Shown: positions 2-27,743 of the stretch, piece after piece | How the letters are laid out: each line of letters opens with the position of its first letter | How positions within the stretch are numbered: position 1 is the stretch's first letter | Origin: Tenebrionibacter intestinalis | Lineage (GTDB): Bacteria > Pseudomonadota > Gammaproteobacteria > Enterobacterales > Enterobacteriaceae | Direction: 5' to 3' | DNA length: 32,000 bases | Assembly: GCF_016632365.1 (NCBI RefSeq) | Contig: NZ_JAEPBH010000028.1 | Span: forward strand, 7,375-39,374 | The notes under the pieces: generated by a model | What the model saw: only the letters and a program-made list of their open reading frames with translations | What the model was told of the DNA's origin: nothing | Database searches by the model: none | Position numbers and translations under genes: made by a program

Positions 2-3000
2 GGACTCGACGATCCGAAGCACCGCTATAAGCTGCGTTTGCTGGCGTCTTCCGCGTCTTTGCCGATGGAAGGCGCGGATGGAGAACAATCGAGAAAGTAT
101 CTACGCGATCTCTTCGCTCCCTTCGGCACTTGTCGCGATCCCCGGGATGAGGGCAGCGACTCTCCGGAATTCTGGCGTAACTGCGTCGTTGAGGGTACCC
201 CCTTCATACCTGAACCAGAAAGTAAAGTTGACGCGCGGCCTTTTGCCGCCCTGATGCGGATGGCGCTTACAGGTCAAGGCGACGTTGTCCGCCGCTTAAA
301 GATGACAGACGAGTTTGAGCGAGCTTTAGTTAACGCTTTTCAGGCTCTTGGCGTAAAAGAGCGAAATAGCCGTCAAGGCGTTAAGTTGGCGGCGGAAACC
401 GCAGCCGCGTTATTAACCAACGCCTGCATTGAAAAAAAAGGCGACAAGCCGCGCGCCACGTCTCCCAAGCATATCATCGACAAAATTTTTCTGGCGGAAA
501 GCCTGGATGGAGAGAAGGAATCTGAACTCGCGTTACGCGGATTAATGTTGTTACGCGCGCTTCCGGATTCCGTACTTGACTGCGATAAACCTGACGCCGC
601 TACGCCGGCTTTTCGCGCGCATACGTTCGTCAGAAATATTGAAGGTTTCTTCGCGTCGGTCTCGCCCGGAGAGCGAAAAGCGAAATTCGCCGATTTTTGC
701 CTAGAACGCGGCCTGTCGCACGCGCCTTCAACCTCACAAGAAAAGCGTGGTCGGCGTTTATTCGAAATGCTTTACTGCGAAGCTTGCGGTGATTTACTGC
801 TTGGTGGTCAGAGGGGACAAAATTGCGGAGGCGCTACGGTAGAACTATTACCCTCGACGACCAATCTTGAAAATCTTCCCGAACGTCCCGGCGCGGAATA
901 TTACGATGATATGGCGCTGGATGAGTTTGCGGTTTTCTGGCCTGTTGAAAAAACGCCCGCTCCCAGTGAAAAAGGATGGGATGTATGGCAGAAAGCGACG
1001 CTGAATCCTGTTACAGGCATTGTAACTGTAGGGCAAGAAACATCGCAGAAGAACGCAGAGGCGGTTCGCGGACATCTCTATTTTCAGAACCCGCCCCCGG
1101 CGAAAAAAGGAGAACCGGTAAAACCGCCTTCCGCGCAACCTTTTTGTTGCCCTAACTGCGGTATCGATTATTCCAGTCGACCGGCAACCAACCGCGCCAG
1201 AACGCCCATTCGCGCATTCCGTACCGGCGTGACGAAATCATCTCAACTGGTGGCGACGGAGCTATTCGAATTGCTGCATGCGATCGGCGCTGATGCGAAG
1301 AGTATTGTCTTTTCGGATAGCCGACAGGATGCGGCGTCGATGGCGCTGGAAATTGAACGTCTGCACTTACGCGATTTGCGAAGGGAAATACTGGTCGCAG
1401 CCGCCAGAGCGATGATCAGCGAGGCGGAAAAAGAATATATTCCAGAAGAAGAATTTAAAGAAAAAAGAGATAAAGCGATACAAGCTGGGGATGATGATGA
1501 ACTCGACAGGCTATATGAGCTCAAAACAAGGCAAAAAGGTATTGCGAGCCTTTGTAAATTCAGACGGGTAAAAATAGATAGCTTACTAGAGTCAGAAGGA
1601 GATTCTATCGGAAGAATATCCTCAGAATTGGCTGGATTGGGAATATCGCCTTACAAATATCGCCCGAGCGCTGATGGAGACGACACAACTGTCTGGCATA
1701 ACAATTTTGTAAAAGATAAACACATCGTTAAATACCACGAAAAACTTTCCTTGTCTGACAGGTTGGCGATCAAGCAGAGGATAATTGACGATCAATCCGA
1801 ATTAATAGATGACGTCATTTTCGCCAATACTTTTTTCGCGTTAGAGGAAACGGGTCTGGCGTATCCCTGCGTCTCGGATAACGAGGATACGCCCGAACTC
1901 GACGCCTGGTTAAGAGTCTTTGCCGGTGTTTATCGCATAAAAGAAAACAAATATGTCGATCCAGAACAATCCGACGGCTGGTACGTTGGAGAAGATATTA
2001 AAAAAGCGAAAGTCAAGCGCGTCGCCAGAGCCGTATTCGGCGACGACAAATATCTGGATAATTTGACGCTAGTCTTAAATCAGTTCGCTGATCGAGAGCA
2101 TACGGCAGGGCTATTCAATATTGGCAAATTGTTCCTCAAGGTAGCGAAATCAGGCGATCCCTACTGGCAATGCGGCAACTGTGGGCGGATCCACTTACAT
2201 TTAGGGTTTAAACGTTGTACCCGTTGTGCGGAACCGCTTGATATCACTCCCAAAGATTCTGTTGAAACGCTATGGGAACAGAATTTCCTTGGCAAACGCA
2301 TTGTACGCGGCGAACGGGACGGCGTTAAGCGATTTCGATTGAACGTTGAAGAATTGACAGGGCAGACTGATGACTTTTCCGATCGACTTCGTAAATTCAA
2401 AGGGATTTTCGTCGATAAGATGAGCGAACTTGAAAAACTGGACGCCGAGATCGATATGCTTGCCGTCACCACGACAATGGAGGTTGGCATCGATATCGGT
2501 TCGCTTCAGTCGGTTTATCAGGCCAACATGCCGCCTCAGCGTTTCAATTACCAGCAGCGCGTCGGTCGGGCCGGGCGGCGCGGTCAGGCTTATTCTTTTG
2601 TCATTACGTTTTGCCGTGGACGGACTCACGACGCCTATTATTTCGCCCATCCTCACGCGATTACAGGCGATCCGCCGCCCCCCCCCTTTTTGGCGGTAGA
2701 TCACGACGCTATCCCATTAAGGCTTTTGCGTAAAGTCTGGCTCAGAAGCGCCTTTAATCTATTGCGTGAAGAAGATAGCGAGAACGGGATAGATTTTCCT
2801 GGCGATAAACTTGTCCCGCCTGACGTTCATGGCGAATATGTTTCTACGCATGATTACTATTATGACGATAACGCGAACTGGGCTGAACGATTGCAGGGTG
2901 CGCTGGAAGCGACGCAGAGCATACGCGAACGTTTTATCGAAGCGTCGACGTTCGATCCGGAACAACGCCAGAATCTTCATTCCGCATTGAATGCCAAAAA

Positions 3001-4672
3001 AATAATCGATGAAATCGCCGAACTGAACGCTTACGCGCCTGACGACAGCGTGGGGCTCGCCCGTTTTCTAGCTGAATGCGGAAAATTGCCGATGTATGGA
3101 ATGCCGACCCGGGTACGCAATTTGTATCTGGGATTACGTGAGAAAAAAGGTCTGAACAACCAGACTGAATACGAATGGTCGACAATGGATCGCGATCTTG
3201 ACCTTGCGGTATTCGAGTATGCTCCCGGCTCGGTATTAATTAAGGATAAGAAAAAGCACAAGGTGATCGGCTTCACAGGAAATTATCGGGAACCGCATAA
3301 CCGGAATAATCGCGTGTCGGATCTCTCTACGGTGGGCTCGTGGCTGGAGTCATCCAGTCATGTCGCATTTTGCCCGGCATGCGGTTCCGCAAAGCTGGAA
3401 TTGCGTCAACCAGACAATGAAATTCAATGTAAGGATTGCGGCGCGCATATAAATCCTGACGAGTTCAAACTCTACATCACGCCTGCCGCTTTCCGTACGG
3501 ATTTCGAGCCCAAAGACGATCTGGATAGTTTTACCCGCATGTCTTTAAAGACTACCGCGACAGTATTAAACGAAGAAACTCCGACACACTGTGATCCCTT
3601 GATCATACGACGTGGAGAAGTCACTATACTGCGTCTTAACGACGGTCCTATTAATGGAGAAAAAGAAGGAGAACGTTTTACTGTCGACCTCACAAGCGAT
3701 CAAAAAGCGCCGGTTCCTTTCGTTGCTTACCGCTCGCCGATTAAAGGCGAGCAGGCGATTGATTCTAATTGGTTAAAAGAGCAAGATAATTCACGTTGGC
3801 GGCGTAAAGGCGAGAGCAGAAATTTCGGTCTGGTCTCCAGTAAGGAGACTGAATCGCTTCATCTCGAATTAACAAGGTTCGATCCTCGTCTTAATTTGAA
3901 TATGGTCGCCAGGTATGGCGAGCATATGCACTTGCCTACGCGAGCGGCGGCCATCAGCGCGATTCAGATATTAACGCATAAGGCCGCCCTCTATCTGGAT
4001 GTCTCGCCTGATGAGTTCGAAACGCTTGAACCTCGATTGCATTTTGGCAAACCTATACTGCAAATCGCAGACGCGTTAATCAATGGCTCAGGATTATGCA
4101 GACGTCTTGCCGAACCGGCGGTTGCCGGAAGTTCTCCCTTAATAATCAAATTGCTGCATGAAATTCTGAAAGATGAACGCGGCTGGCCGATGGTTGATTT
4201 TCTAAAGAAAGATCATCCAGTCCAATGTCGGACAGCATGTTACAAATGTATACAACGCTACGGAAACCGCCAATATCACGGCTTACTGGACTGGCGTTTA
4301 GGAATAGCCTATTTACGCGCCATGGTTATGCCGGAATTCGCATGCGGCCTGAATGTTGAAGACTGGAACCATCCAGAAATGAAAGGATGGAAAGAAAGAG
4401 CGTTTGAACTTGCGGAGGATGTCGAGGCGTTACGACCGGGGACTATCAAATTGTTAAAGGAACATTCTTTACCAGTTCTTGAAATAAATGATGGAAAAGA
4501 TCTTTGGCGCGCGGCTGTTACACATCCCTTATGGCAATGCCGGGACGCTGAACGTGATGCCCTAATTGGTTCTTTTGGATTAGATAATATAGGAGCGCCA
4601 TTACGATTTATCGACACCTTTGAACTGGAGAGACGGCCACTGCGCGCTTTGGCGAAACTTAATCGAGGTTAA
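2..4672 (+). CDS. Giant superfamily-2 helicase with C-terminal DUF1998/MrfA-type zinc domain, 5'-truncated by the window edge (DruE-like / fused DrmA-DrmB-like defence helicase)
   Basis: The frame is open from nt 2 with no stop before the first Met at 38, so the N-terminal RecA1 domain must lie upstream. Helicase C-terminal motifs are present: SIVFSDSRQDAA, TTTMEVGIDIGSL, QRVGRAGRRGQ. There are three zinc-ribbon-like Cys pairs (CEACG..CCPNCG, CGNCG..CTRCA, CPACG..CKDCG). The C-terminal signature CRTACYKCIQRYGNRQYHGLLDW is typical of DUF1998. Confidence 0.75.
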   Translation, partial: GLDDPKHRYKLRLLASSASLPMEGADGEQSRKYLRDLFAPFGTCRDPRDEGSDSPEFWRNCVVEGTPFIPEPESKVDARPFAALMRMALTGQGDVVRRLKMTDEFERALVNAFQALGVKERNSRQGVKLAAETAAALLTNACIEKKGDKPRATSPKHIIDKIFLAESLDGEKESELALRGLMLLRALPDSVLDCDKPDAATPAFRAHTFVRNIEGFFASVSPGERKAKFADFCLERGLSHAPSTSQEKRGRRLFEMLYCEACGDLLLGGQRGQNCGGATVELLPSTTNLENLPERPGAEYYDDMALDEFAVFWPVEKTPAPSEKGWDVWQKATLNPVTGIVTVGQETSQKNAEAVRGHLYFQNPPPAKKGEPVKPPSAQPFCCPNCGIDYSSRPATNRARTPIRAFRTGVTKSSQLVATELFELLHAIGADAKSIVFSDSRQDAASMALEIERLHLRDLRREILVAAARAMISEAEKEYIPEEEFKEKRDKAIQAGDDDELDRLYELKTRQKGIASLCKFRRVKIDSLLESEGDSIGRISSELAGLGISPYKYRPSADGDDTTVWHNNFVKDKHIVKYHEKLSLSDRLAIKQRIIDDQSELIDDVIFANTFFALEETGLAYPCVSDNEDTPELDAWLRVFAGVYRIKENKYVDPEQSDGWYVGEDIKKAKVKRVARAVFGDDKYLDNLTLVLNQFADREHTAGLFNIGKLFLKVAKSGDPYWQCGNCGRIHLHLGFKRCTRCAEPLDITPKDSVETLWEQNFLGKRIVRGERDGVKRFRLNVEELTGQTDDFSDRLRKFKGIFVDKMSELEKLDAEIDMLAVTTTMEVGIDIGSLQSVYQANMPPQRFNYQQRVGRAGRRGQAYSFVITFCRGRTHDAYYFAHPHAITGDPPPPPFLAVDHDAIPLRLLRKVWLRSAFNLLREEDSENGIDFPGDKLVPPDVHGEYVSTHDYYYDDNANWAERLQGALEATQSIRERFIEASTFDPEQRQNLHSALNAKKIIDEIAELNAYAPDDSVGLARFLAECGKLPMYGMPTRVRNLYLGLREKKGLNNQTEYEWSTMDRDLDLAVFEYAPGSVLIKDKKKHKVIGFTGNYREPHNRNNRVSDLSTVGSWLESSSHVAFCPACGSAKLELRQPDNEIQCKDCGAHINPDEFKLYITPAAFRTDFEPKDDLDSFTRMSLKTTATVLNEETPTHCDPLIIRRGEVTILRLNDGPINGEKEGERFTVDLTSDQKAPVPFVAYRSPIKGEQAIDSNWLKEQDNSRWRRKGESRNFGLVSSKETESLHLELTRFDPRLNLNMVARYGEHMHLPTRAAAISAIQILTHKAALYLDVSPDEFETLEPRLHFGKPILQIADALINGSGLCRRLAEPAVAGSSPLIIKLLHEILKDERGWPMVDFLKKDHPVQCRTACYKCIQRYGNRQYHGLLDWRLGIAYLRAMVMPEFACGLNVEDWNHPEMKGWKERAFELAEDVEALRPGTIKLLKEHSLPVLEINDGKDLWRAAVTHPLWQCRDAERDALIGSFGLDNIGAPLRFIDTFELERRPLRALAKLNRG

Positions 4673-4766: not shown

Positions 4767-5180
4767 ATGGATACAGTAACACCGGCTAAAAGAAGCTTTG
4801 TGATGTCCCGAGTTAAAGGGAAAGATACTAAGCCTGAGCTAATCGTCAGACGCCTCGTCTATCATGCCGGATTTCGTTATCGTTTATACGACCCTCGACT
4901 GCCTGGCAAGCCCGATTTAGTCTTTTGGGGAAAGCGCAAAGCCATCTTCGTACATGGCTGCTTTTGGCATGGTCATAAGGGATGTTGGCGAAATCGCATG
5001 CCAAAATCAAATCAGGAATATTGGTTTACAAAACTGGAAAGAAATAAAACAAGGGACTCCATGAGCTTATCAAAGTTACACGAAATGGGCTGGCGAACGT
5101 TGGTAGTTTGGGAATGCGAACTTAAAGAGACGGATATCCTGCTGGAAAAATTGAAAGCGTTTTTAATAGAGGATGCCTAG
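4767..5180 (+). CDS. vsr: Very-short-patch repair endonuclease Vsr
   Basis: 137 aa with Vsr hallmarks: RSFVMSRVKGKDTKPE, PGKPDLVF, FVHGCFWHGH, W..KL..N..RD. A GAGG Shine-Dalgarno lies about 7 nt upstream of the ATG. Confidence 0.9.
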   Translation: MDTVTPAKRSFVMSRVKGKDTKPELIVRRLVYHAGFRYRLYDPRLPGKPDLVFWGKRKAIFVHGCFWHGHKGCWRNRMPKSNQEYWFTKLERNKTRDSMSLSKLHEMGWRTLVVWECELKETDILLEKLKAFLIEDA

Positions 5181-5305
5181 ATAAGAAGCGACATTGTTTT
5201 TAACTGCCATATCGCAGGTAGAAAATGGTGGTCATTCTGGTGGTCTTGACAAAACTGGACTTTTAATTTAGCTTAATCTTCAGCCAGTTAATGGCAAAGG
5301 CGATC

Positions 5306-5322
5306 CCAGTCAGAGGAGCCAA
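5306..5322 (+). repeat. 17-nt direct repeat of the tRNA-Asn 3' end (island att remnant)
   Basis: CCAGTCAGAGGAGCCAA is identical to 6077-6093 of the complete tRNA-Asn. Its first 16 nt also match the two other tRNA-Asn copies. Confidence 0.85.
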
Positions 5323-5486
5323 ATTTCCGTTTTTACGCGCTCAGGCGAATCGCTATATGTTTTTGATTCAAAGAGTTAGCGTAAAGACCCTTCCGATGTG
5401 TATCTGTTTATTCTCTGCGCCAGGCAAAATTGGTGGTCTGTTTTAGGATCATTTCAGTTTGTTCCTGAAGTCACCGCCATATATCC

Positions 5487-6016: not shown

Positions 6017-6092
6017 TCCTCTGTAGTTCAGTCGGTAGAACGGCGGACTGTTAATCCGTATGTCACTGGTTCGAGTCCAGTCAGAGGAGCCA
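6017..6092 (+). tRNA. tRNA-Asn (anticodon GUU)
   Basis: 76 nt, TCCTCTGTAGTTCAGTCGGTAGAACGGCGGACTGTTAATCCGTATGTCACTGGTTCGAGTCCAGTCAGAGGAGCCA. It matches the enterobacterial tRNA-Asn as I recall it, with anticodon loop CU-GUU-AA and an encoded CCA. Confidence 0.97.
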
Positions 6093-6436: not shown

Positions 6437-6465
6437 CGGATTATCCCGCTCGCGCGGGGGAATAC
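6437..6465 (-). CRISPR. Single degenerate type I-E repeat; the cas2-proximal array is reduced to one repeat and no spacers
   Basis: The minus strand reads GTATTCCCCCGCGCGAGCGGGATAATCCG, compared with GAGTTCCCCGCGCAAGCGGGGATAAACCC at 12897-12925. It lies 63 nt downstream of the cas2 stop. I found no second repeat at 61-62-nt periodicity in 6093-6436. Confidence 0.7.
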
Positions 6466-6528: not shown

Positions 6529-7741
<1,213 letters not shown>

Positions 7742-7742
<1 letters not shown>

Positions 7743-8404
7743 TAACGCGCCCTTTTTATCAGCATCAGACCACAGCCCAGCGCTTTACTTTTACCTATGC
7801 CGCCAGACAAGGCCAGACTAAACGCCACCGGATCGGTAACCGTCAGTCTGCCGACATAATCCACGCTGCTAAACAACACAGGCTTTTCTCCCGGGCGTCG
7901 CACAAAACGGTGCTGCTCATAGGCCCGCACGCCGCTCCACAGGGCCATATCGTCAGGCAATATGGGTTTAAACCCGTGCCGCTCTCCTTGCCTTATCAGC
8001 CAGTCGGTCGCCGCCTGCTGCTGCAATGCCTGAATGGCTGTCGCATCCAGCCCCTGCTTTTTCGCCTGAAATTTTGCGTCCATCAGTACGTCGCTGCGCT
8101 TTTTCGCACGCGTTATCACCGGGTTGGCACGCAACTGAAAGTCCAACTGCATACCGCGATGTAACTGAAGCTGCCAGGGTTTGGTTTCGACGATAAACAG
8201 GTCATGACGCGCCAGCGGCGGTTCGGGAGATAAAAGATAAAAACATTGGTCATTTTCTCTGTGGAACAGAAAATCACGCTGTGTTTTTCCCGGAAAAAGT
8301 TGCCACAGCCACTGGTGCGAAACGTAAGGCTGGCACGCTCCCCATTTTTCCAACATTTGCGGCGTCAGCCGCGACAACATCAGGCGTACTCGTGATAAAT
8401 ACAT
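7742..8404 (-). CDS. cas6e: Cas6e (CasE/Cse3) crRNA endoribonuclease
   Basis: 220 aa with an MYLSRV.. start, C-terminal GIGKSKALGCGLMLI motif, and the expected operon position between cas5e and cas1. Confidence 0.9.
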
Positions 8405-9141
8405 CAGCCTCCCTCCACTGGCAGCGTGCCGACATAACAGACTCGCTCGCCAAACTGCCAGCGCTTGCGGCTTAGCGGATTATCACTGCACATGCGTTGC
8501 TCATGCGCAGGAATACTGGTTTCATCCGGATCGTCCCAGTAACACTCCGCACTTGCCTCTACTATCGGCGCTATTGCGTCATCCTTCGGCGCGGGCAACC
8601 TCTGCCCTGCCTGGGCCATAACATGGGCCAGCGAACCTGTTGCAAGATAGGGAAAAAGTGGCAGCGACAGCGGGCAGGCCTTGCGCCCCATATAGAGCGG
8701 GAAATGCGGTTTTTGTAAGGCGGTTTGCAGCGCCTGTAATGACAGCGGCGCCTGTGGCGTTGCGCGTACGGCCACATGATAGTAGGCATCACCGTAATAC
8801 TCGCGCAGTGTGACAACCGTCCCTACCTCTTGCGGGGCAAGCAGCAGCTCATCGCGCCGGGTTGCATAGAAGCGTTTTCTGTTTTCCCGCGGCATGCTGA
8901 CCGTATGATAGTCACGCAGCCTTGTCTGCTGTGAAAAACGTGGGCAAACGGCAAAATAGTAGTGTTGATTAAACGCGTTGAGCCGCTGCTCTTCATCGCG
9001 CCGGATACCTACCGCTGCGGCAAGCAACCCAAGCAAAGCCGAGCGCCCCGGCACCGCTGAAGAGTGGCGCATTTCACCTGTCGCCTCCAGGCCCCAGGAA
9101 GCCAGCGGCGCATAAAGCTGAAACACCAGATACTGTGTCAT
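8404..9141 (-). CDS. cas5e: Cas5e (CasD)
   Basis: 245 aa. The N-terminus YLVFQLYAPLASWG..RSALLGLLAAAVGIRRDE is typical of Cas5e. Operon position fits. Confidence 0.9.
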   Translation of the reverse strand: MTQYLVFQLYAPLASWGLEATGEMRHSSAVPGRSALLGLLAAAVGIRRDEEQRLNAFNQHYYFAVCPRFSQQTRLRDYHTVSMPRENRKRFYATRRDELLLAPQEVGTVVTLREYYGDAYYHVAVRATPQAPLSLQALQTALQKPHFPLYMGRKACPLSLPLFPYLATGSLAHVMAQAGQRLPAPKDDAIAPIVEASAECYWDDPDETSIPAHEQRMCSDNPLSRKRWQFGERVCYVGTLPVEGG

Positions 9142-9152
9142 GGTTTTGTCCT

Positions 9153-10244
9153 TTACTGGCGCACAAAATCCAGCAGTGCGGGCAACGGGCCGGTAGCAGC
9201 AGACTCAATAGCGCTGGCGCCGCCTTCAACATTCAGCACAAACCGCTTGTCGGCGCAGGCGCCATAGGCATTATCAAACTTGCAGCACTGCTGCTCCAGC
9301 GAAGCAATCGCCTGCATAAGCTGATTATCGCCGGCAACGGGCTTTAAAAAGGCCACTGACAGCGAGCGCGGCTGCTGCTCGCCTTTTTCAACCAGGGCAT
9401 AGGATGCGTAAGCGCGGGAAGCGAAGCTGTTTTGCTTGCCGCCTGGCGATACGGTCATCGCTGTTTGCGTCAGCGCCGCAATCGTGCGTGCGGTCAGCTC
9501 TTCATTCCCATCAAGATTTTCCAGCAGCAGGTCGCGGCTGATGCAGATGTAGGTATAAAACAGCGCCGAGGCGAAACCCTGTTCGCCCATGTGTCCCGAA
9601 CCGGTATCGTTTTCCGCCAGGTTCAGGTCATCCACTGCGGTAAAGAAGTCGTCTTCCACCAACACGGCGCTAACGCCCAGCGCGTGGGCAACCTGGCAGG
9701 CCGCCTCCACGTTGTAGTCCGGCTCGGAGGCCAGCATGCGGCCAAACAGCGCCATATCCACGCTGCGCGCCTCTTTTCTAAGCAGGTCTAATTCACTCTC
9801 CTGCGGTTCACGCTTCTCCTCAATCAGCGTCGCCACCAGCTTCTCAATTAACGCTTTTTCATGAACGCTGATATTCACCACCTGTTCGATATTGAGGTTG
9901 TCGCGCACGTCTTTGGGATTTTTATCGTTTTTGCGTTTACCAAACCGCTCGGCGATTTTTTCCGCCGCGGACAGGGCCAGCTTTTCCGGCACCCCGGCCT
10001 TTTTCATAGGCTCATAGACATACTTGCTGCCAATACAGCGGGTGCGAATACCGACATAATCGCCGTCAAGCGCGCAGGAAAAGGTTGGCGATACCCGCCA
10101 CGCGCGCTTGAGGCTTTGAGACGAAACGCGCAGGCGTTTCACACCGCCCATGAACGCCGTTTTAGGCTGTCCGGTATCATCACGGTTGAGGTTAGAAGGC
10201 GCATAAGAGGTTAACAGGTGTAGCTGGATAAATGTCGTCATCAT
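9153..10244 (-). CDS. cas7e: Cas7e (CasC/Cse4) Cascade backbone subunit
   Basis: 363 aa with the LNRDD..RVSSQSLKRAWR motif characteristic of Cas7e. Confidence 0.92.
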   Translation of the reverse strand: MMTTFIQLHLLTSYAPSNLNRDDTGQPKTAFMGGVKRLRVSSQSLKRAWRVSPTFSCALDGDYVGIRTRCIGSKYVYEPMKKAGVPEKLALSAAEKIAERFGKRKNDKNPKDVRDNLNIEQVVNISVHEKALIEKLVATLIEEKREPQESELDLLRKEARSVDMALFGRMLASEPDYNVEAACQVAHALGVSAVLVEDDFFTAVDDLNLAENDTGSGHMGEQGFASALFYTYICISRDLLLENLDGNEELTARTIAALTQTAMTVSPGGKQNSFASRAYASYALVEKGEQQPRSLSVAFLKPVAGDNQLMQAIASLEQQCCKFDNAYGACADKRFVLNVEGGASAIESAATGPLPALLDFVRQ

Positions 10245-10274: not shown

Positions 10275-10868
10275 TTAATTACCGGCCTTCATATATTCAC
10301 TGGCCCAGCGAATACGGTTGCGGGAGAAAGGATCGCTGCACTCAGGCTGATGTTCTTCCCTGGCCTGCCATTCGCGCATCCAAAGAAAAATGCCGTCTGC
10401 CAGTGAAACAATATTTACGCCTTCTTTGCCGCGCAGCTTGACTGCGCGAACAAGCTGCCGGCAAAACTCGGCAGGCTCGCGAGTGTCCTGTAAGCGATCG
10501 AAACGCAGCGCTGACAGACATGCGCGGCCTTTAATATTTTCACCCAACTGAGCGGCAAAACTGCGCCCTGAAGTATTTTTATCGGCATGAGCGGCCGCAC
10601 AGACAAAGACCGCCAACGCGAGGCTATCAACGTGATTTAGCGGCATCACGCGTTCCAGCAGCCCCCTGAGCGTGTGATACCCTTCATACACCATGACGCC
10701 ATAAGGCGCTGCTGCGCGACGCAGCTCGGCTCGCCAGGCACGCCCGTTAATGCGCCTCTGGCCAATATGGGCATCCCTCTCCTGCAGCGCGTTAAACCAG
10801 GTGACCAGTATTTTTTTTGTATCATCGGATGTGAATACCCGTTCCCGGGCCGTATCGGTATTAAGCAT
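10275..10868 (-). CDS. cse2: Cse2 (CasB/Cas11e) small Cascade subunit
   Basis: 197 aa, Arg-rich and helical (RAELRRAA..). It lies between cas8e and cas7e with an 8-nt overlap with cas8e. The call rests on position and composition. Confidence 0.8.
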   Translation of the reverse strand: MLNTDTARERVFTSDDTKKILVTWFNALQERDAHIGQRRINGRAWRAELRRAAAPYGVMVYEGYHTLRGLLERVMPLNHVDSLALAVFVCAAAHADKNTSGRSFAAQLGENIKGRACLSALRFDRLQDTREPAEFCRQLVRAVKLRGKEGVNIVSLADGIFLWMREWQAREEHQPECSDPFSRNRIRWASEYMKAGN

Positions 10869-12426
10869 TCCCTCTCTCCTGCGGCTTTACCGCGAGTTCA
10901 GTAAAATCCTTGCGGACCTTCAGCTTCTGATATTCGCCCTCCAGCTTTTTTCTGGCGGCAAGCTGGCGACGCAAAATGGCGCTGTCGTCTTGCGAACCGG
11001 ATAACACCATGCCATCAAACATCATGAACATATGTTGCAGCAGGTAGGTCGGCCATTGCGCCATACGCCGCGACGTTTCGGGCTGCGCCTGCATGGGATC
11101 CTTTATCATGGCCGTTAGCAGCAGGCTGAATTGCGCTTGCGTCCCCTGCCACCAGGTGAGATCCCACATGCTGAAATCGCCAGGGGCATCGCCGCCTGCC
11201 GCGAAAAGCGCCGCTTTAAGGTGCTTTTTAAGCAAAGACAGTGCGGAGTTTGCCAGCTCTAGCGCAAGTTTGGCCTGCGCTTTCACTTGCTCTGGCTCAT
11301 CAGTGATAATCAGCGGCAGCCGGTGTTGATACCAACAGCGCGCCTTGGCGTTATCCATATCAAACCCAAAACACCAAAGGCGTGTTGCCGGCATTTTGCG
11401 GCGTTTTGACATCGCCGGGACCACAGCCGCAGGGCGGGTGAGGTTGAATTTATCTTCACTTTGCAGCGACAGCCCCAGCCAGTCTTTGTAACACAGCCCC
11501 CCCGGCTGCCCCTTAAGCGCAAGCCAGGGCGCAGCGCTGTCTTTTATGGACTGCCTGTGTGGCGACAGCGGGTGAACCCAGCCCTCATACTGGACGCCGT
11601 AGTTTTTCGTGCGTATTTCCCGCAGGCAGGCTTCACTATGCTCCCCGCACAGGTCACAGTTGCCCGCTTGTGTTGCAGAAAAATCGATTTCAATGCGCCT
11701 TGGCATCCCCCAGTACGCCTGCAGAGCGTGCGCATTGTCCGGCGTCACGCTGTTGCCTGGCCGCTCGCTGGTGCGGGTTGCGGTAAGCCAGGGGAAAATC
11801 AGCGGTAGCTGCGCCTGCTCAACCTGCGGCTGGCCTGACATCACGTTCAGCCAGAGCTTTTTCCACAGCGGCAGGGTGTTATCTTCAGGTACGATAAGCG
11901 TCGTCAGCGGGCCGCCGCCGCGCATTCCAACGCGATAGCCTGCGCCGCCGGCGGGTGAATTGGTCTGCACGGTAAAAAGCGCGATAGCCGCGCAGTGCGG
12001 GCACATGCGTTGACAGGCGCTGCGCTTAATGAAGTGATCTTTATTGAGCTTGAGCGTATTGCCGCCGGGCGCATCGATTAGCAGCCCGGCAATGGTGCTG
12101 TTTTCCCCCTCAAGCGGTTCATGACTTTGCAAAAAAGCGGGCTTCTGCGGGCCAAACTGCATCGCGGGCGCCACCACAGAAAGCGCCTGTCGCCACGCAT
12201 CCTGCGCCATACCGTCATACCAGACAGCGCGCCATGCCGCTTCATTTTCCGGCCCCGCCGCCGTTTGCAGCAGCCCGATAAGAAACTGCCAGGCGCCGTT
12301 TTGAAAATCAGGCCGTGGATACGCCAGATCGAGAATATCCTCATCCCACAGCGCCAGCGGCGATATTTTTTTTTGCTGGCGCGTGGCGGTGACAACCGGC
12401 AACCAGCTTTCCGTGATTAAATCCAT
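10861..12426 (-). CDS. cas8e: Cse1 (CasA/Cas8e) large Cascade subunit
   Basis: 521 aa. The N-terminus MDLITESWLPV resembles CasA MNLLIDNWIPV. A Cys cluster CPHCAAIALF..CDLCG is present. An AGGAG Shine-Dalgarno sits at 12436-12432. Confidence 0.9.
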   Translation of the reverse strand: MDLITESWLPVVTATRQQKKISPLALWDEDILDLAYPRPDFQNGAWQFLIGLLQTAAGPENEAAWRAVWYDGMAQDAWRQALSVVAPAMQFGPQKPAFLQSHEPLEGENSTIAGLLIDAPGGNTLKLNKDHFIKRSACQRMCPHCAAIALFTVQTNSPAGGAGYRVGMRGGGPLTTLIVPEDNTLPLWKKLWLNVMSGQPQVEQAQLPLIFPWLTATRTSERPGNSVTPDNAHALQAYWGMPRRIEIDFSATQAGNCDLCGEHSEACLREIRTKNYGVQYEGWVHPLSPHRQSIKDSAAPWLALKGQPGGLCYKDWLGLSLQSEDKFNLTRPAAVVPAMSKRRKMPATRLWCFGFDMDNAKARCWYQHRLPLIITDEPEQVKAQAKLALELANSALSLLKKHLKAALFAAGGDAPGDFSMWDLTWWQGTQAQFSLLLTAMIKDPMQAQPETSRRMAQWPTYLLQHMFMMFDGMVLSGSQDDSAILRRQLAARKKLEGEYQKLKVRKDFTELAVKPQERGNA

Positions 12427-12439
12427 TTTTACTCCTGTG

Positions 12440-12464
12440 AAAACCCGCCCCTTCCGAGGCGGGT
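12440..12464 (-). terminator. Intrinsic terminator/attenuator immediately upstream of the cas8e ribosome-binding site
   Basis: The minus strand reads CCCGCCUC-GGAA-GGGGCGGG, an 8-bp GC-rich stem with a GNRA tetraloop. UUUU (12443-12440) follows, and only 3 nt separate it from the AGGAG SD of cas8e. Confidence 0.6.
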
Positions 12465-12468
12465 ATTG

Positions 12469-12549
12469 TTAAGAGCGCCTTATCTGCATAAAAAGGAGGC
12501 TCAACGCAAGCACAAGAAACTGATAATCAAAACTCATGACTATTGTCAT
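12469..12549 (-). CDS. Candidate small hydrophobic peptide (26 aa), possible type-I-like/CreT-like toxin
   Basis: ATG at 12549, TAA at 12471-12469. Peptide MTIVMSFDYQFLVLALSLLFMQIRRS has a hydrophobic core and a basic tail. It starts 10 nt after the stop of the upstream 41-aa ORF and ends 4-5 nt before the terminator stem. There is no strong SD and no homology evidence. Confidence 0.3.
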   Translation of the reverse strand: MTIVMSFDYQFLVLALSLLFMQIRRS

Positions 12550-12559
12550 CAATAATTAC

Positions 12560-12685
12560 TCACAGGTATTGCCGGAACCCTGAGCGCGCCTTAGAATGCA
12601 GTTGCTTACACCACTCCTGAGGCCGCGCACATCTCCGATGGAACGGCCTTATGGAGTTCCATCGTTGGACATACAATATACGCAT
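12560..12685 (-). CDS. Candidate 41-aa basic leader/toxin ORF rich in rare Arg/Ile codons
   Basis: ATG at 12685, TGA at 12562-12560. Peptide MRILYVQRWNSIRPFHRRCARPQEWCKQLHSKARSGFRQYL. Codons include ATA x2, AGG, AGA, CGG x3 and CGA. It begins about 15 nt from the predicted TSS. No clear SD. Confidence 0.2.
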   Translation of the reverse strand: MRILYVQRWNSIRPFHRRCARPQEWCKQLHSKARSGFRQYL

Positions 12686-12706
12686 CCGAATACGGGCGCA
12701 AACAAA

Positions 12707-12735
12707 TTAATAAGTTAAACATCTTATATTTGCAA
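12707..12735 (-). promoter_or_regulatory. Predicted sigma70 promoter firing toward the small ORFs and cas8e
   Basis: Minus strand: TTGCAA (12735-12730), 17 nt, TATTAA (12712-12707). A T8 tract lies upstream of the -35. Predicted TSS is near 12700. Confidence 0.45.
12712..12729 (+). promoter_or_regulatory. PAM-flanked partial protospacer matching the mini-CRISPR pseudo-spacer (predicted Cascade binding/operator site)
   Basis: AAG|TTAAACATCTTATAT is an AAG PAM followed by identity to pseudo-spacer nt 1-5, 7-11 and 13-15. Mismatches fall only at positions 6 and 12. The match lies exactly between the -10 and -35 of the minus-strand promoter. Confidence 0.55.
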
Positions 12736-12795
12736 AAAAAAGCTTTATAGAACACATAAAGAACCTATAAAATATTTATAGAAAAATCCGGTTTA

Positions 12796-12824
12796 TTGCC
12801 TCATCGCAGACATACCGCTATACT
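12796..12824 (+). promoter_or_regulatory. Predicted sigma70 promoter of the mini-CRISPR
   Basis: TTGCCT (12796-12801), 17 nt, TATACT (12819-12824). The predicted TSS at about 12831-12833 is right at the first repeat. Confidence 0.5.
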
Positions 12825-12834
12825 TAGCCGCGAT

Positions 12835-12925
12835 AATTTCCCCGCGCGAGCGGGGATGAACCGTTAAAAATCTTTTATAGATTTTTATAAATTATCGAGT
12901 TCCCCGCGCAAGCGGGGATAAACCC
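12835..12925 (+). CRISPR. Mini-CRISPR: degenerate repeat, 33-nt pseudo-spacer, degenerate repeat, antisense to the cas genes (CreA/CreR-like)
   Basis: Repeat 1 is AATTTCCCCGCGCGAGCGGGGATGAACCG (12835-12863). The spacer is TTAAAAATCTTTTATAGATTTTTATAAATTATC (12864-12896). Repeat 2 is GAGTTCCCCGCGCAAGCGGGGATAAACCC (12897-12925). The Cas6e hairpin stem CCCCGC/GCGGGG is intact in both repeats. Confidence 0.85.
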
Positions 12926-12935
12926 GGCGCGCTCC

Positions 12936-15701
12936 CTAACCTTCGTTCCCCACCAGCCCATACTGCGCGCTGTAATAACCGGTATTGCTGGCTTCGCTAA
13001 CCAGCAACACCTGGGCCGTATGGCGCCGCATCGTGGTTCTGAATGCGGCCAGCGCCTCCTGCGGCGGCAGCGCAAACTGGCGGCTGTGCTTTTTCCACCA
13101 CGTTTCCCGCACCTGAAGCCGGCTCATCTCCCAGCTAAATTCGCCTTCATCGGCATACGGGCGCAGCCCTGACTCCCCATCCGGGTATGCGAGGAAAACC
13201 TCAACGCCCTCCTCGCTCAGGCGCGTTGAAATATCTTTAGCATCATCCCACATATAATCGCTGGCGCTGCGGTCATAACCTCTATCGCGCACAAGTAAAT
13301 TATTTTTTGCCGCCGCCCGCTGGCTTAACTGCAGCCCCAGCGCCTCATCGGCGTTGCGCTCCAGCCCGGGGGGAACCGGCTCGTCCTCCCCATATACTCC
13401 CTCAACCAGCCTGCGAGCGTCGTCTGGCATGCGTATAGCGCTCAGTTCGCGCAAAAGGCGCTGCGTGCGCCACAGGCAGACGTGATCGGCATAAACATAA
13501 CCGGTGCCGCGCAGCGCTTCCCCCAGCCAGCCGGGGTGCGGCTCGGGCTGCCATTCTGGCGCAAGCACATGCAGAACCGGTTGCGCCCGGTCATCTGCCT
13601 GCGGTGGCGGGTTGTCACCGGGCAACGGTATTTTGAGGTCGCCTCTGGCAGTGCGAATATGGCGCTGTAGACGCCCCGCGCGCTGAATCAGTAAATCGAC
13701 GGGGGCCAGATCGGTCAGCATATTATCAACGTCAATATCCAGGCTCTGCTCTATAACCTGGGTCGCGATAAGTACTTTCCCTCTACGCAACTGCGCGCTT
13801 GAGGCCTTACCAAACTGATGCAGCGCCTGGTTTTCAATATTCAGGCGGTCGGCAAACGCAAAGCGACTGTGGAACAACAGCAGATTATCGGCGGGTATCA
13901 CCCCCTCATCCAGCAGCCGACGGTAGACGGCAATCGCGTCATCAACGGTGTTACGTATCCAGCAAACGCTCTCGCCTGCCGCCGCTGCCCGGTAAATCAG
14001 CGCAATGCCTTCATCCACACAGCTAAACCAGCCCACGCTAACGTGGCGCGCCACTGCTTTACGGGTATCAAGCTTTTTTTCTTCTAAAGCCGCGGACGTC
14101 AGGCGGGTAAACCAGGGGTAGCCTGCCTGTGGGCTGGGCTGCGGTTGTACAAATCCGGCCCCTGCGGCAAACGCGGCAAGCAGCCTTTCGCGCAGCGCAT
14201 AGTGCAGCGTAGCGCTGAGAATAATGACGCTGCCGCCCTGCGCCGCATGGAAAAAAAGCAGCCCTTCGAGTAACCGCACCATGTAGCCGTCGTAGGCGTG
14301 AACCTCATCAAGCAGCAAAATTTTATCGCGCATCCCGAGCAGGCGCAGTGACTGATGGCAAAACGGCATTACCGCCATCAGCAGTTGATCGAGCGTTCCA
14401 ACCCCTACTTCAGCCAGCAGCGCTTTTTTACGCGAGTCGGCAAACCACGCGCTGCATTCGCTGCCCGCGCCCGGCTCATCTGCGGTATAGTGCTCCGGCG
14501 CACGCTGCTCGCTGTGCCAGACAGAATCACGAAACTGCATCGACATCTGCCGACCACCGTGCGCCAGCACCAGTGAAGGGCGCTGCCCAATTTCAAAGAG
14601 CGCGCGGTAAGCTTCGGCCAGACGCGCATACATCGCATTTGCAGTCGCCATTGTCGGCAGCCCGACATACAGGCCGCGTCCCTTGCCCGCAGACATCATC
14701 CTGTGCGCCAGTATCATCGCAGCCTCGGTTTTACCGGCGCCGGTCACATCCTCCAGCACCATAAGCTGTGGACCCGGCGCGCAGATATCCAGCGTCGCGG
14801 CATACTGTTGCAGCGGCGTAGGCTGGCGCAGAAACGGGAACATCGGCAAAAAACCGGGGTATTTACTGACCGCCGACGCCGGCGGAATAGCCGAAACGGC
14901 GGCCTGCGCGTTATTCAGCGCCTGCGCCCAGTACCCGGCAAGCGCAACGGGGCGGCCAGACCAGGGAAAACGTGTATTGTCAGAACCAAGCCAGTCGGCA
15001 AGGGTAACTGCGCCTGCCAGTTGCCAGCTATGCTGTTTAAGCGATTTCTGCCACTCAGCGTCTTTCCAGCATTCGGGCCAGTGGGTAAAGCCAAAAAGTT
15101 CGTTTAGCGCGGCGATGAAGGCATGGGCGGCGGCCATGTCCGACGGGTCAAAAGCCAGATGGCCTTCATGTTCTTTTATTTCCGGCGGTATACCGTGATG
15201 CCCGGTGCTTATCTGCATCCAGATATCCATAGCATCGAGGTATTCCTGCGCATCTCGCTCACTGCATGCCGGCAGCAGCCCTGTGTCGTCCTCCAGCCAC
15301 GATTCGCTCAACCTGTGCCAGAGAAAATAGCCCAGCGAATCGTGGCGGCAATAATATTTTTTCCCGGCCAGCGGCGCCACTAACACACCGTTACCGCAGG
15401 ACGCCAGCCCCTGAAACCCGCGCGCGAACTTGCCAATATCGTGCGTTGCCGCAAGCCAGCTAAACCAGCGTGCGCCCTCTTCGTCGCTAAACCCCAGAGC
15501 GATCAGCGTATCGGTAACGCCATATCGATTTTCCTTTACCATCTGGTGAGCACAGGCGGCAACATCAAGACAATGCCATACCAGTAGATGATACTCATCA
15601 CCATGATGGATTTTACCCGGCCGCGCTTTCCCCCAGTAACGGAAATAACCGGGAATATCATCAGGCCATTGCACAACAAACTTTTCCTTTTGTTTCCGCA
15701 A
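12936..15701 (-). CDS. cas3: Cas3 HD nuclease/helicase (type I-E)
   Basis: 921 aa. N-terminal HD domain (YWGKARP..HLLVWHCLDVAA..ATHDIGKF), Walker A VTGAGKTEAA, DEAH-like LLDEVHAYD, motif VI QRAGRLQRH. Confidence 0.95.
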   Translation of the reverse strand: MRKQKEKFVVQWPDDIPGYFRYWGKARPGKIHHGDEYHLLVWHCLDVAACAHQMVKENRYGVTDTLIALGFSDEEGARWFSWLAATHDIGKFARGFQGLASCGNGVLVAPLAGKKYYCRHDSLGYFLWHRLSESWLEDDTGLLPACSERDAQEYLDAMDIWMQISTGHHGIPPEIKEHEGHLAFDPSDMAAAHAFIAALNELFGFTHWPECWKDAEWQKSLKQHSWQLAGAVTLADWLGSDNTRFPWSGRPVALAGYWAQALNNAQAAVSAIPPASAVSKYPGFLPMFPFLRQPTPLQQYAATLDICAPGPQLMVLEDVTGAGKTEAAMILAHRMMSAGKGRGLYVGLPTMATANAMYARLAEAYRALFEIGQRPSLVLAHGGRQMSMQFRDSVWHSEQRAPEHYTADEPGAGSECSAWFADSRKKALLAEVGVGTLDQLLMAVMPFCHQSLRLLGMRDKILLLDEVHAYDGYMVRLLEGLLFFHAAQGGSVIILSATLHYALRERLLAAFAAGAGFVQPQPSPQAGYPWFTRLTSAALEEKKLDTRKAVARHVSVGWFSCVDEGIALIYRAAAAGESVCWIRNTVDDAIAVYRRLLDEGVIPADNLLLFHSRFAFADRLNIENQALHQFGKASSAQLRRGKVLIATQVIEQSLDIDVDNMLTDLAPVDLLIQRAGRLQRHIRTARGDLKIPLPGDNPPPQADDRAQPVLHVLAPEWQPEPHPGWLGEALRGTGYVYADHVCLWRTQRLLRELSAIRMPDDARRLVEGVYGEDEPVPPGLERNADEALGLQLSQRAAAKNNLLVRDRGYDRSASDYMWDDAKDISTRLSEEGVEVFLAYPDGESGLRPYADEGEFSWEMSRLQVRETWWKKHSRQFALPPQEALAAFRTTMRRHTAQVLLVSEASNTGYYSAQYGLVGNEG

Positions 15702-17685: not shown

Positions 17686-17761
17686 TCCTCTGTAGTTCAG
17701 TCGGTAGAACGGCGGACTGTTAATCCGTATGTCACTGGTTCGAGTCCAGTCAGAGGAGCCA
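17686..17761 (+). tRNA. asnW: tRNA-Asn (GUU)
   Basis: Identical 76-nt sequence to 6017-6092. The symbol is assigned from amn - tRNA - yeeO synteny with E. coli. Confidence 0.95.
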
Positions 17762-19752: not shown

Positions 19753-19828
19753 TCCTCTGTAGTTCAGTCGGTAGAACGGCGGACTGTTAATCCGTATGTC
19801 ACTGGTTCGAGTCCAGTCAGAGGAGCCA
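19753..19828 (+). tRNA. asnU: tRNA-Asn (GUU)
   Basis: Identical 76-nt sequence to the other two copies. The symbol is assigned from synteny (downstream of yeeO). Confidence 0.95.
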
Positions 19829-20008: not shown

Positions 20009-21283
20009 ATGTCACTGACTGATATTAAAGCAAAAAATGCAAAACCCCTTGAGAAGGAATACAAGCTGACTGATGGCTTTGGTATGTTCCTTCGTGTTAC
20101 CCCTAAAGGTTCGAAATACTGGCAAATGGCCTACCGTTTCGAAGGAAAGCAAAAACTTTTCTCTATCGGTGTTTACCCTGCTGTTTCTCTTTCTGACGCA
20201 AGACAACGCCGTGACGAGGCCAGAAGGCTTCTGGCTCAGGGTATTGACCCTAATGCAAAGAAACAGGCAGAGGTTAAAGAGCTTAAAGCCAAACGTGATA
20301 ATACACGCTCCTTCAGAACAGTAGCAAAAGCGTGGTTCGCCACGAAAACAAAATGGTCTGATGATTATGGTGATGCCGTATGGAAGCGCCTTGAAACTTA
20401 TGTCTTCCCGGTAATCGGTGACAAAGATGTTGCCGAACTGGATACGGGTGATCTGCTGGTTCCGGTGAAAAAGGTGGAGGCTCTTGGTTATCTTGAAGTC
20501 GCCATGCGCATTCAACAATACATTACGGCGATCCTGCGTCATGCCGTCCAGCAAAAGCTGATACGCCATAACCCAGCCTATGATATGGAAGGTGCAGTTC
20601 AGAAACCACAAACTGAACACCGCCCTGCACTTGAGCTGGAAGAAATACCCCAGCTACTGAACAAAATTGCCGAATACAAAGGCCGCAGGTTAACCATACT
20701 GGCAATACAGCTCAATCTGATGATTTTCATTCGTTCCAGTGAGCTGCGTTTCGCTCGCTGGTCAGAAATTGATTTCAAAAGTAAGTTATGGGTGATACCC
20801 GAACAGCGTGAAGCGATTGAAAACGTCAAACATTCAACTCGTGGGGCTAAAATGAAGCGTAAGCACTTCGTTCCCCTTTGTAAGCAGGCCATGAAGATAC
20901 TCAAAGAGATCCGACAACTGACTTATGAAGAAGGTCAAGATGATGGGTTAATCTTTACTGGCTGTTATGACTCGTTTAAACCCATGAGTGAAAACACCAT
21001 CAACAAAGCCCTGCGTAATATGGGATATAACACGAAGCAGGACATCTGTGGACACGGTTTCCGAACACTGGCCTGTAGTGCCTTAATTGAGTCCGGGCTA
21101 TGGTCAGAAGACGCTGTAGAGCTTCAGATGAGCCATAAGGAAAGCAACAGTGTCCGGGCAGCTTATACCCACAAGGCTAAACACCTTGATCAACGCCGTC
21201 TGATGCTTCAGTGGTGGGCTGATTTCCTTGATGCTAACAGTAACGATATGGTCAGACCGTTTGAGTTTGCTTCAAATAAATAA
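20009..21283 (+). CDS. int: P4-type tyrosine integrase
   Basis: 424 aa. N-terminal arm-binding pattern LTDIKAKNAKP..KEYKLTDGFGMFLRVTPKGSKYWQMAYRF.GKQK. Catalytic residues in RSSELRFARW, GHGFRT and VRAAYTH. It lies adjacent to the tRNA. Confidence 0.93.
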   Translation: MSLTDIKAKNAKPLEKEYKLTDGFGMFLRVTPKGSKYWQMAYRFEGKQKLFSIGVYPAVSLSDARQRRDEARRLLAQGIDPNAKKQAEVKELKAKRDNTRSFRTVAKAWFATKTKWSDDYGDAVWKRLETYVFPVIGDKDVAELDTGDLLVPVKKVEALGYLEVAMRIQQYITAILRHAVQQKLIRHNPAYDMEGAVQKPQTEHRPALELEEIPQLLNKIAEYKGRRLTILAIQLNLMIFIRSSELRFARWSEIDFKSKLWVIPEQREAIENVKHSTRGAKMKRKHFVPLCKQAMKILKEIRQLTYEEGQDDGLIFTGCYDSFKPMSENTINKALRNMGYNTKQDICGHGFRTLACSALIESGLWSEDAVELQMSHKESNSVRAAYTHKAKHLDQRRLMLQWWADFLDANSNDMVRPFEFASNK

Positions 21284-27741: not shown

Positions 27742-27743
27742 GA

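Follow-up and report, generated by a model that had tools for sequence, protein, structure and literature searches.

What lies between cas3 and cas8e in the CRISPR-Cas locus (type I-E) of Tenebrionibacter intestinalis, and could this short gap hold a toxin that ties the cell to its own Cascade? We analysed a stretch of 32,000 nucleotides (nt) of this bacterium (contig NZ_JAEPBH010000028.1, hereafter the window), which carries a complete type I-E cas operon on its minus strand. The cas3-cas8e gap is 509 base pairs (bp) long and contains two small open reading frames (ORFs), ORF-a and ORF-b, together with a mini-CRISPR and the target of its guide. A sequence-only reading of the window had proposed that these ORFs lie under a Cascade-targeted promoter and include a toxin resembling CreT of the CreTA addiction modules. 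Both ORFs exist where that reading had placed them, with the same translations and 10 nt between them. The proposal of a CreT-like toxin fits ORF-b, a conserved coding sequence with counterparts in 18 other loci, and does not fit ORF-a. We regard ORF-b as a candidate for a new CreT in type I-E and, should it prove not to be one, as a translated cas8e leader that is itself new. By analogy with described systems, we assign a probability of roughly 0.55 to the reading in which the ORF-b module is a peptide-type CreT under CreA-guided Cascade repression, sharing the promoter of the cas operon.

Counterparts of ORF-b, 25-26 codons long, were found directly upstream of cse1 (cas8e) in the 18 other type I-E loci, which belong to Pseudescherichia, Enterobacter, Pluralibacter gergoviae, Scandinavium, Rosenbergiella, Mixta, Apirhabdus, Salmonella enterica, Klebsiella grimontii and metagenomes (related loci are labelled L001 and so on below). 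The Cse1 cluster of the S. enterica with ORF-b comprises 1168 member sequences. The family has the consensus MxISFxLNHxEMxMLxAFLLxxLKRx, is hydrophobic with a K/R-R tail, and is preceded by an AAAGG-type Shine-Dalgarno sequence in most loci. Mean Kyte-Doolittle hydropathy was about 1.1 for the window ORF-b and 0.89-1.18 for the other members, and ORF-b, at 26 amino acids (aa), falls within the size and hydrophobicity of type I toxins (hydrophobic peptides of <60 aa). Among informative pairs of members, the ratio of non-synonymous to synonymous change (pN/pS) in the ORF-b frame was 0.18-0.57. The +2 frame gave a higher ratio in every comparable pair, and the +1 frame a lower one in two pairs (L005/L051 and L060/L089). 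Between L007 and L065, for example, ORF-b differs by 11 synonymous and 7 non-synonymous changes (pS 0.63, pN 0.12). Entropy by codon position across the family was lowest at position 2 (0.53), compared to 1.15 at position 1 and 1.33 at position 3. Judged from these sequence comparisons, the ORF-b family is a conserved small coding gene under coding-type constraint.

The copy in the window is a divergent member of this family. When compared without gaps to the ten 26-aa members, it scored 30.9 by BLOSUM62, against -5.3 +/- 8.0 for composition-preserving shuffles (0/5000 reached the observed score; z 4.5). It shares an MTI start and an RRS end with some members and is flanked by the homologous leader motif and hairpin described below; a TTG at 12552 could serve as an alternative start. 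No match to a toxin family (Hok/Gef, Ldr, Ibs, TisB, ShoB and others) was found for ORF-b in Pfam or NCBIfam at E values up to 10, and a search with an ORF-b peptide (tblastn) against plasmids and phages gave none either. We found no description of the ORF-b family in the literature, and it is apparently undescribed.

The guide that would control this module comes from a degenerate mini-CRISPR inside the cas locus, which consists of two repeat-like units around a 33-nt spacer and has its CRISPR RNA (crRNA) sense on the plus strand, divergent from cas8e (Table 1). A candidate promoter precedes it, and the Salmonella locus L133 has an equivalent promoter-like site upstream of its mini-array. The protospacer, the best partial match of the spacer across the whole window, agrees with it at positions 1-5, 7-11 and 13-15, with mismatches at 6, 12 and 16, and is flanked by an AAG protospacer-adjacent motif (PAM). 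This PAM-flanked partial match lies over or beside the candidate promoters, whose transcription start sites (TSS) are predicted; the earlier claim of a Cascade-targeted promoter was thus confirmed as to the match and its PAM. The same holds for 14 of 14 distinct related loci that have an ORF-b module as well as a mini-array: an AAG PAM flanks their best seed match, the PAM having played no part in the scoring. Across the same 14 loci, 19 of the 25 mismatches within positions 1-13 fall at position 6 or 12. Positions 6 and 12 are the bases that are flipped out and left unread by type I-E Cascade. The window locus is also present on two public contigs (JGI 3300056790 and Logan SRR35949447) at 99.6% identity; 40 of 9566 positions differ between the window and the two near-identical contigs (L047 and L048), and the three intergenic differences among them (12720, 12726 and 12730) correspond to protospacer positions 6, 12 and 16. 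We read this pattern of matches and mismatches as the signature of a functional CreA/CreR-type guide. Such type I-E guides have been described by Shmakov et al. and Liu et al. (10.1101/2023.03.03.530964; 10.1101/2023.03.10.532045).

Three further observations concern the guide and its target. The difference at 12730 also alters the last base of the TTGCAA -35 element. In L039, the Cascade target (CATGTAGC plus CTT) is present in two tandem copies (3596-3660) upstream of the leader. No ordinary CRISPR array was found in the window, where the only repeat matches are the two mini-array units (0 expected), and the mini-array guide is the only crRNA-like gene there beside an intact cas operon.

Table 1. 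Positions in the window of the elements of the cas3-cas8e gap and of the cas genes
Feature	Position	Strand	Basis or remark
Mini-CRISPR, CreA/CreR-like	12835..12925	plus	opposite to cas genes; only repeat matches in the window
Repeat-like unit R1	12835-12863	plus	yields 5' handle AUGAACCG
Mini-array spacer, 33 nt	12864-12896	plus
Repeat-like unit R2	12897-12925	plus
Candidate mini-CRISPR promoter, TTGCCT-17-TATACT	12796..12824	plus	scan; 10 nt upstream of R1
Cascade target	AAG PAM 12712-12714, protospacer 12715-12747	plus	spacer match
Candidate promoter P1	-35 TTGCAA 12735-12730, 17-nt spacer, -10 TATTAA 12712-12707	minus	read from sequence
Alternative promoter P2	-35 TTGTTT 12705-12700, 19-nt spacer, -10 TATATT 12680-12675	minus	inference
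Candidate antisense promoter, TTGCCG-17-TAGAAT	12569..12597	plus	scan; hypothesis only
Structured leader RNA	12550..12700	minus	fold, family alignment
Leader hairpin arms	12664-12656 and 12644-12636	minus
AGGAG-containing loop region	12621-12611	minus
Conserved 15-nt motif CAACTGCATTCTAAG	12604-12590	minus	identical in window and L005
ORF-a, 41 aa	12685..12560	minus	judged not a gene
ORF-b, MTIVMSFDYQFLVLALSLLFMQIRRS, 26 aa	12549..12469	minus	divergent family member, candidate CreT
GC hairpin CCCGCCUC-GGAA-GGGGCGGG plus UUUU	12440..12463	minus	candidate leaky terminator, attenuator or RNA-stabilising element
cas8e ribosome-binding site	12424..12436 (AGGAG 12436-12432, ATG 12426)	minus
cas3	15701..12936	minus
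cas8e/cse1	12426..10861	minus
cse2	10868..10275	minus
cas7	10244..9153	minus
cas5	9141..8404	minus
cas6e	8404..7742	minus
cas1	7742..6819	minus
cas2	6822..6529	minus

Starting 5 nt past the ORF-b stop, the DNA reads CCCGCCTC-GGAA-GGGGCGGG (12463..12444) and then TTTT (12443..12440). A hairpin is found 4-10 nt past the stop throughout the family, with a U tract of 1-4 nt. In 16 loci, its 10 stem pairs were 94.8% paired and 8 of them showed compensatory changes, a result that none of 500 shuffles reached. This element had been taken for a terminator. The hairpin and its TTTT are present, but with only four U it was not called a terminator in the scan, and transcription would have to pass it. As the U tract is short and cas8e starts 40-94 nt past the ORF-b stop across the family, the hairpin would have to be read through. 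In the window, the cas8e ATG follows the ORF-b stop by 42 nt and no minus-strand promoter was called by the scan in this region; as there is no room for a promoter of its own, the hairpin can hardly be a full stop, and the cas8e operon probably has the supposed unit as its 5' part. A terminator-bounded transcription unit, as had been proposed, is therefore doubtful, because cas8e has no other visible promoter. In our reading, the cas8e operon opens with ORF-b as its first cistron or translated leader. In the predicted fold of the window, and in no other member, the last ORF-b codons (GCUCUU) pair with AGGAGU of cas8e around the hairpin, which hints at translational coupling of ORF-b and cas8e. 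Minimum free energy (MFE) folds gave no antiterminator pairing that was consistent across members. In L065 (2404-2500), the cse1 ribosome-binding site and the first ~70 nt of the gene are duplicated right after the ORF-b hairpin.

Two minus-strand promoters may drive this transcript (Table 1). P1 underlies the protospacer and its PAM and would start transcription at about 12700; the scan tool did not call it. P2 follows closely downstream of the PAM, a placement shared by the clear promoters of L005, L051, L006, L007 and Citrobacter rodentium; its 19-nt spacer is poor, and its predicted TSS is at about 12668. If P2 were used, the ATG of ORF-a would not be transcribed. On the opposite strand, the scan placed a candidate antisense promoter whose -10 element (TAGAAT) is the reverse complement of the conserved leader motif. 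Most family members have, at the same place, a TAnnAT -10 with a TTG-type -35 at a distance of 17-18 nt, and one subgroup only has an antisense leader hairpin followed by a terminator-like U-run. A cis-antisense RNA over the leader may exist on these grounds, but the G-U pairs of the motif stem point rather to a role on the sense strand.

The stretch that holds ORF-a appears to be a leader conserved as nucleotide sequence and structure. Compared to dinucleotide shuffles, the RNA of the window unit folds with a z score of -4.57. A long imperfect leader hairpin was predicted in most members, in per-sequence folds only; 9 of 14 had z <= -1.9 and the rest were weak. RNAalifold on a MAFFT alignment of the leaders returned one 7-bp stem and nothing more, and a search of positions 12000-13300 against Rfam (evalue mode) gave sub-threshold noise and no match. 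The 5' half of the conserved motif forms a small conserved stem with an upstream GAGUGG; this stem was 91.7% paired, with compensatory changes at three pairs and many G-U pairs, which point to an RNA of the sense strand. The sequence-only reading had also suggested that a CCTCC within ORF-b (12499..12495) could pair with an upstream AGGAG (12618..12614). Both elements exist, but their pairing is absent from the MFE and centroid folds; in the MFE fold of the window, AGGAG pairs locally and the CCUCC of ORF-b pairs with the leader around AAGG. We also considered and dropped a long-range pairing of the motif with the 3' end of ORF-b, predicted in the window and L005, as the MFE partners differ among members, and an upstream micro-ORF with a conserved stop before the motif, as this stop is missing in 6 of 14 members. 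The apical loops of the leader hairpins nearly always contain GGA (CAGGAG, CUGGAUA), as seen in the window (12611-12621), L005, L006, L039, L059, L060 and L063. It would be pure speculation to liken the two GGA sites, one in this loop and one in the AAAGGA-like Shine-Dalgarno sequence of ORF-b, to a CsrA-binding layout.

ORF-a itself we judge, from its sequence context, not to be a gene. Among 5000 shuffles of the 264-nt unit, 17% contained an ATG-initiated ORF of at least 41 aa, 45% one of 26 aa or more, and 8% two ORFs; the two ORFs, their spacing, the hairpin and the codon counts do not, each by itself, exceed chance. No homologue of ORF-a was found by phmmer among 1.84 billion representative proteins; three weak multi-stretch matches in long repetitive proteins were rejected as homologues. 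In 13 related leaders, the frame anchored on the motif was open for 10-89 codons with an inconsistent start, and the phase between motif and ORF-b took all three values. ORF-a is not preceded by a Shine-Dalgarno sequence. Its supposedly rare codons had been counted correctly (ATA x2, AGG, AGA, CGG x3, CGA), but they are not very rare, as they occur 3-10 times per 1000 codons in the genes of the window, with no codon other than CGA and AGA at less than 5 per 1000.

How does this locus compare with known systems? A precedent of the same subtype and slot exists in C. rodentium, where colonisation of the gut depends on the Cascade genes and not on cas3, cas1 or cas2 (Basta, Campbell et al., Nat Microbiol 2025, PMC12055562). 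The dependence is seen only in the presence of a segment of the 495-bp region between cas3 and casA, and induction of a 96-bp ORF arrests growth unless it carries stop or frameshift mutations (PMC12055562). We retrieved this locus from the genome through its Cse1 and read it alongside the window. The order of elements is the same in both, with an opposite-strand mini-array, a target, a leader of ~120 nt, a Shine-Dalgarno sequence, the ORF, about 50 nt and then casA, and the cas3-casA gap of 495 bp is close to the 509 bp of the window. The C. rodentium target and its ATG PAM lie just upstream of TTGAAC-17-TATTAT, whereas the PAM of the window is AAG. Its CreT (MQEESTRFKCLFLRMMVRLGKKLSISFQLSLH) is a cationic amphipathic peptide of 32 aa, unlike the hydrophobic 26-aa ORF-b; its leader does not contain the CAACTGCATTCTAAG motif, and the stem after the ORF is much weaker than that of the window. 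The C. rodentium Cse1 also belongs to another clade, with at most 45% identity to the window Cse1 (clade-mates 44-45%; itself outside the best 120 matches).

The cas3-cas8e slot holds toxins elsewhere too. Homologues of the C. rodentium CreT are present in L072 (2344-2439) and L076 (1260-1316), which fall in a different Cse1 clade; in L072, the cas3 frame continues into the toxin leader, and there is no mini-array between cas3 and the toxin ORF. In L001, which has the closest Cse1 among species-representative genomes (70% identity only), the cas3-cse1 gap contains ccdA/ccdB upstream of the mini-array (Pfam E values 7e-27 and 2e-33; region 2826-3394; 3894-3950), while its leader contains (GGGCAATAT)n as a tandem repeat and ORF-b is absent.

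The type I-E mini-array of S. enterica (CreR) auto-represses PcasA and was reported without a toxin, with its target ~140 bp upstream of casA (10.1101/2023.03.10.532045). Like the window, CreR and other type I-E mini-arrays (10.1101/2023.03.03.530964) have a degenerate two-repeat array between cas3 and cas8e, with a spacer match of ~15 nt beside an AAG PAM at the promoter upstream of casA. In the window and in the S. enterica locus L133, however, the target is ~290-300 bp upstream of casA, and the extra stretch consists of the leader, ORF-b and the hairpin; ORF-b is absent from the short-type loci L016, L052 and L068. As cas8e has no other visible promoter, the guide of the window probably auto-represses the cas operon as well. 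The CreT systems of Haloarcula hispanica (type I-B) and Pseudomonas aeruginosa (type I-F) are repressed, as proposed for the window, through a crRNA-like guide with a partial PAM-proximal match that tolerates mismatches at positions 6 and 12, and their layout of Shine-Dalgarno sequence, ORF and GC-rich hairpin is that of ORF-b. In P. aeruginosa, these three parts are needed together (10.64898/2026.06.02.729485). However, CreT of H. hispanica and P. aeruginosa consists of mini-ORFs on the scale of 5 codons that act as RNA through rare Arg or tandem Pro codons, whereas ORF-b has 26 codons, constraint at the protein level and no tandem rare or Pro codons.

Type I toxins (Ldr, PepA1, Ibs, ShoB, TisB, Hok) are peptides of <60 aa with one hydrophobic helix, encoded by highly structured mRNAs; in Ldr and PepA1, the C-terminal tail is basic. 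There, the repressor is a small RNA acting on the mRNA; for ORF-b, the main proposed repressor is Cascade on the DNA. The counterpart of the antisense small RNA in the window would be the predicted antisense promoter.

From these comparisons we propose that the opposite-strand mini-CRISPR of two repeats makes a crRNA-like guide that is loaded into Cascade, and that this complex binds the 15-16-nt PAM-proximal match, with its AAG PAM, on or beside the promoter toward cas8e. As the match would be too short to license Cas3, Cascade would act as a repressor. The transcript would comprise a structured leader of ~120-150 nt, ORF-b and the GC hairpin, followed by cas8e and the remaining genes through read-through of the weak hairpin, and functional Cascade would keep both ORF-b and the cas genes low. 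If Cascade were lost, mutated or inhibited, the promoter would stay open and the ORF-b peptide would accumulate; small membrane toxins and the translated CreT of C. rodentium suggest, by analogy, that this would arrest growth.

A broader version of this proposal, which we put forward as doubtful, is that many enterobacterial type I-E loci regarded as 'CreR only', including lineages of S. enterica and Klebsiella, carry a peptide CreT in the cas8e leader under three locks. One lock would be Cascade with its crRNA-like guide on the promoter. Another would be the conserved cis-antisense promoter in the leader, acting by transcriptional interference or through a type I-like RNA antitoxin, and the third the hairpin just past the stop, by which read-through into cas8e and its translation would be coupled to translation of ORF-b. 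The ORF of the toxin would then double as an addiction device and as an expression switch of the immune effector.

Several points weigh against ORF-b being a CreT. Its toxicity is argued from analogy, and it shows neither homology to a described CreT nor a tandem rare-Arg/Pro mini-ORF; compared directly with the C. rodentium CreT, no similarity was detected (hhalign probability 0.9%). ORF-b matched no Pfam, NCBIfam or PADLOC family, and ORF-a and the C. rodentium CreT likewise had no match in these collections. The window copy does not contain the E-M motif of the family, has a weak Shine-Dalgarno sequence, and was missed by a family hidden Markov model built without it (E 0.48, rank 4 of 1179). 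A toxin co-transcribed with the genes of its own repressor would be expressed at each de-repression, so that extra layers of control would be needed. In L009 (3840-3955, Rosenbergiella) and L014 (3810-3955, Mixta), ORF-b abuts a repeat-like unit and cas3 is divergent, the leader is missing and no Cascade target was found, which is awkward for a Cascade-repressed toxin. The locus L044 (Apirhabdus apintestini CP138906.1, 649-8823) bears on both sides. Its cas3, cse1, cse2, cas7, cas5 and cas6e all appear frameshifted or truncated, aligning in pieces or over a truncated range and mostly across several frames, and its ORF-b homologue ends in LMH, with the basic K/R-R tail lost. Loss of the tail beside broken cas genes is what an addiction toxin should do, as far as this one sequence suggests; however, L044 is either a pseudogenised locus or an indel-rich assembly, and the frameshifts could be assembly errors.

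The order of ORF, hairpin and gene would fit a regulatory leader peptide equally well. ORF-b would then be non-toxic and the mini-CRISPR a plain CreR that auto-represses the cas operon: translation to a stop 4-10 nt before the hairpin would melt it, in the window also freeing the cas8e Shine-Dalgarno sequence, and cas8e transcription or translation would hinge on whether the leader ORF is translated. In the classic attenuator layout, as here, a hairpin stands between a short ORF and the first structural gene, and the covarying hairpin at a fixed short distance past the stop, the pairing of the last ORF-b codons with the cas8e Shine-Dalgarno sequence in the window fold, the retention of ORF-b without a visible Cascade target in L009 and L014, and the auto-repressing S. 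enterica mini-arrays described as toxin-free (10.1101/2023.03.10.532045) all agree with it. We nevertheless think it less likely than the toxin reading, though a serious alternative and the most tenable one, since no terminator was called on U tracts of 1-4 nt, no antiterminator pairing is conserved (the predicted partners of the motif vary between members), and the C. rodentium ORF in the corresponding place is toxic by itself. Leader peptides, moreover, are usually kept at their regulatory codons only, whereas here the hydrophobic pattern, the length and the basic tail are kept. These last features would also suit a small membrane protein that is not toxic and plays an accessory part, for instance by modulating a membrane process upon cas induction, and that is simply the first gene of the operon, and a conserved hydrophobic peptide is indeed found in the same orientation immediately upstream of cas8e. 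Yet we know of no small membrane protein that is a component of type I-E systems, other loci have toxin genes in the same slot, and the family is patchy among close Cse1 relatives (absent from L001, L049, L016 and others), as fits a selfish add-on better than a subunit; an accessory role is in our view improbable.

The toxic agent could also be the RNA rather than a peptide, with the Shine-Dalgarno sequence, an ORF with a late rare Arg codon and the hairpin trapping ribosomes or a scarce tRNA. The three parts of the P. aeruginosa CreT recur in ORF-b in the same order (10.64898/2026.06.02.729485). Members with Arg as the first basic residue of the tail all encode it by AGG, AGA or CGA, the others have a Lys codon there, and CGY never occurs. 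A single step, however, separates AGG and AGA from AAG and AAA, the Lys codons of other members, so that the codon pattern may reflect K/R exchange only, and such exchange by single transitions explains it more simply. Along with the coding-type constraint on all 26 codons, and with a single rare codon in place of a tandem pair, of a kind not very rare in the genes of the window, this makes an RNA toxin quite improbable. For ORF-a, proposed as a basic 41-aa toxin or tRNA sink, alone or with ORF-b, there is the ORF with its eight listed codons. It is set against a frame that is broken or shifted in all related loci, a length that 17% of shuffles produce, an ATG that may precede the TSS if the -10 is TATATT, and conservation of the region that is explained by RNA structure and the motif. 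As ORF-a also has neither homologues nor a Shine-Dalgarno sequence and overlaps the leader conserved in sequence and structure, the argument for tRNA sequestration through rare codons is unsupported, and we find a toxic ORF-a scarcely credible. Looking for its conservation in related loci, as a check on the toxic-partner claim, showed that the ORF is not kept.

The wider setting of the locus is a defence island at asn-tRNA hot spots. Three tRNA-Asn genes and a partial 3' copy (5301-5325, 6017-6092, 17686-17761 and 19753-19828) delimit islands, of which the cas locus is one. In another, a DUF6880 protein and the type I restriction-modification system hsdR/S/M (23165-29747) accompany a P4-type integrase (20009-21283), and a Vsr endonuclease (4767-5180) adjoins a 1544-aa helicase-domain ORF (38-4672). 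After cas2, one degenerate repeat (GTATTCCCCCGCGCGAGCGGGATAATCCG, 6437-6465, minus strand) lies behind a leader-like stretch with no array, ~350 nt from the tRNA-Asn gene at 6017-6092. By blastn, the intergenic region matched E. coli genomes at CRISPR repeats and nowhere else, the L005 module had no match in E. coli, and the window unit had none among plasmids.

CreTA addiction modules explain both the persistence of costly cas genes and the punishment of anti-CRISPR attack. In type I-E, the C. rodentium peptide has so far been the only described toxin, and the Salmonella mini-arrays have been deemed toxin-free regulators. The ORF-b family adds a second, unrelated and much more widespread family of small ORFs in this slot, present in Salmonella, Klebsiella, Enterobacter and Pluralibacter. 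If ORF-b is a toxin, some 'CreR' loci would be CreTA modules, and the cas3-cas8e gap would be a general docking site for toxins (ORF-b, the C. rodentium CreT, CcdAB). These hosts are genetically tractable and would allow one to ask whether the peptides kill and how a toxin can share a transcript with its own repressors. Were the proposal true, cas deletions, anti-CRISPR phage therapy and CRISPR-interference tools in such species could set off an unnoticed toxin.

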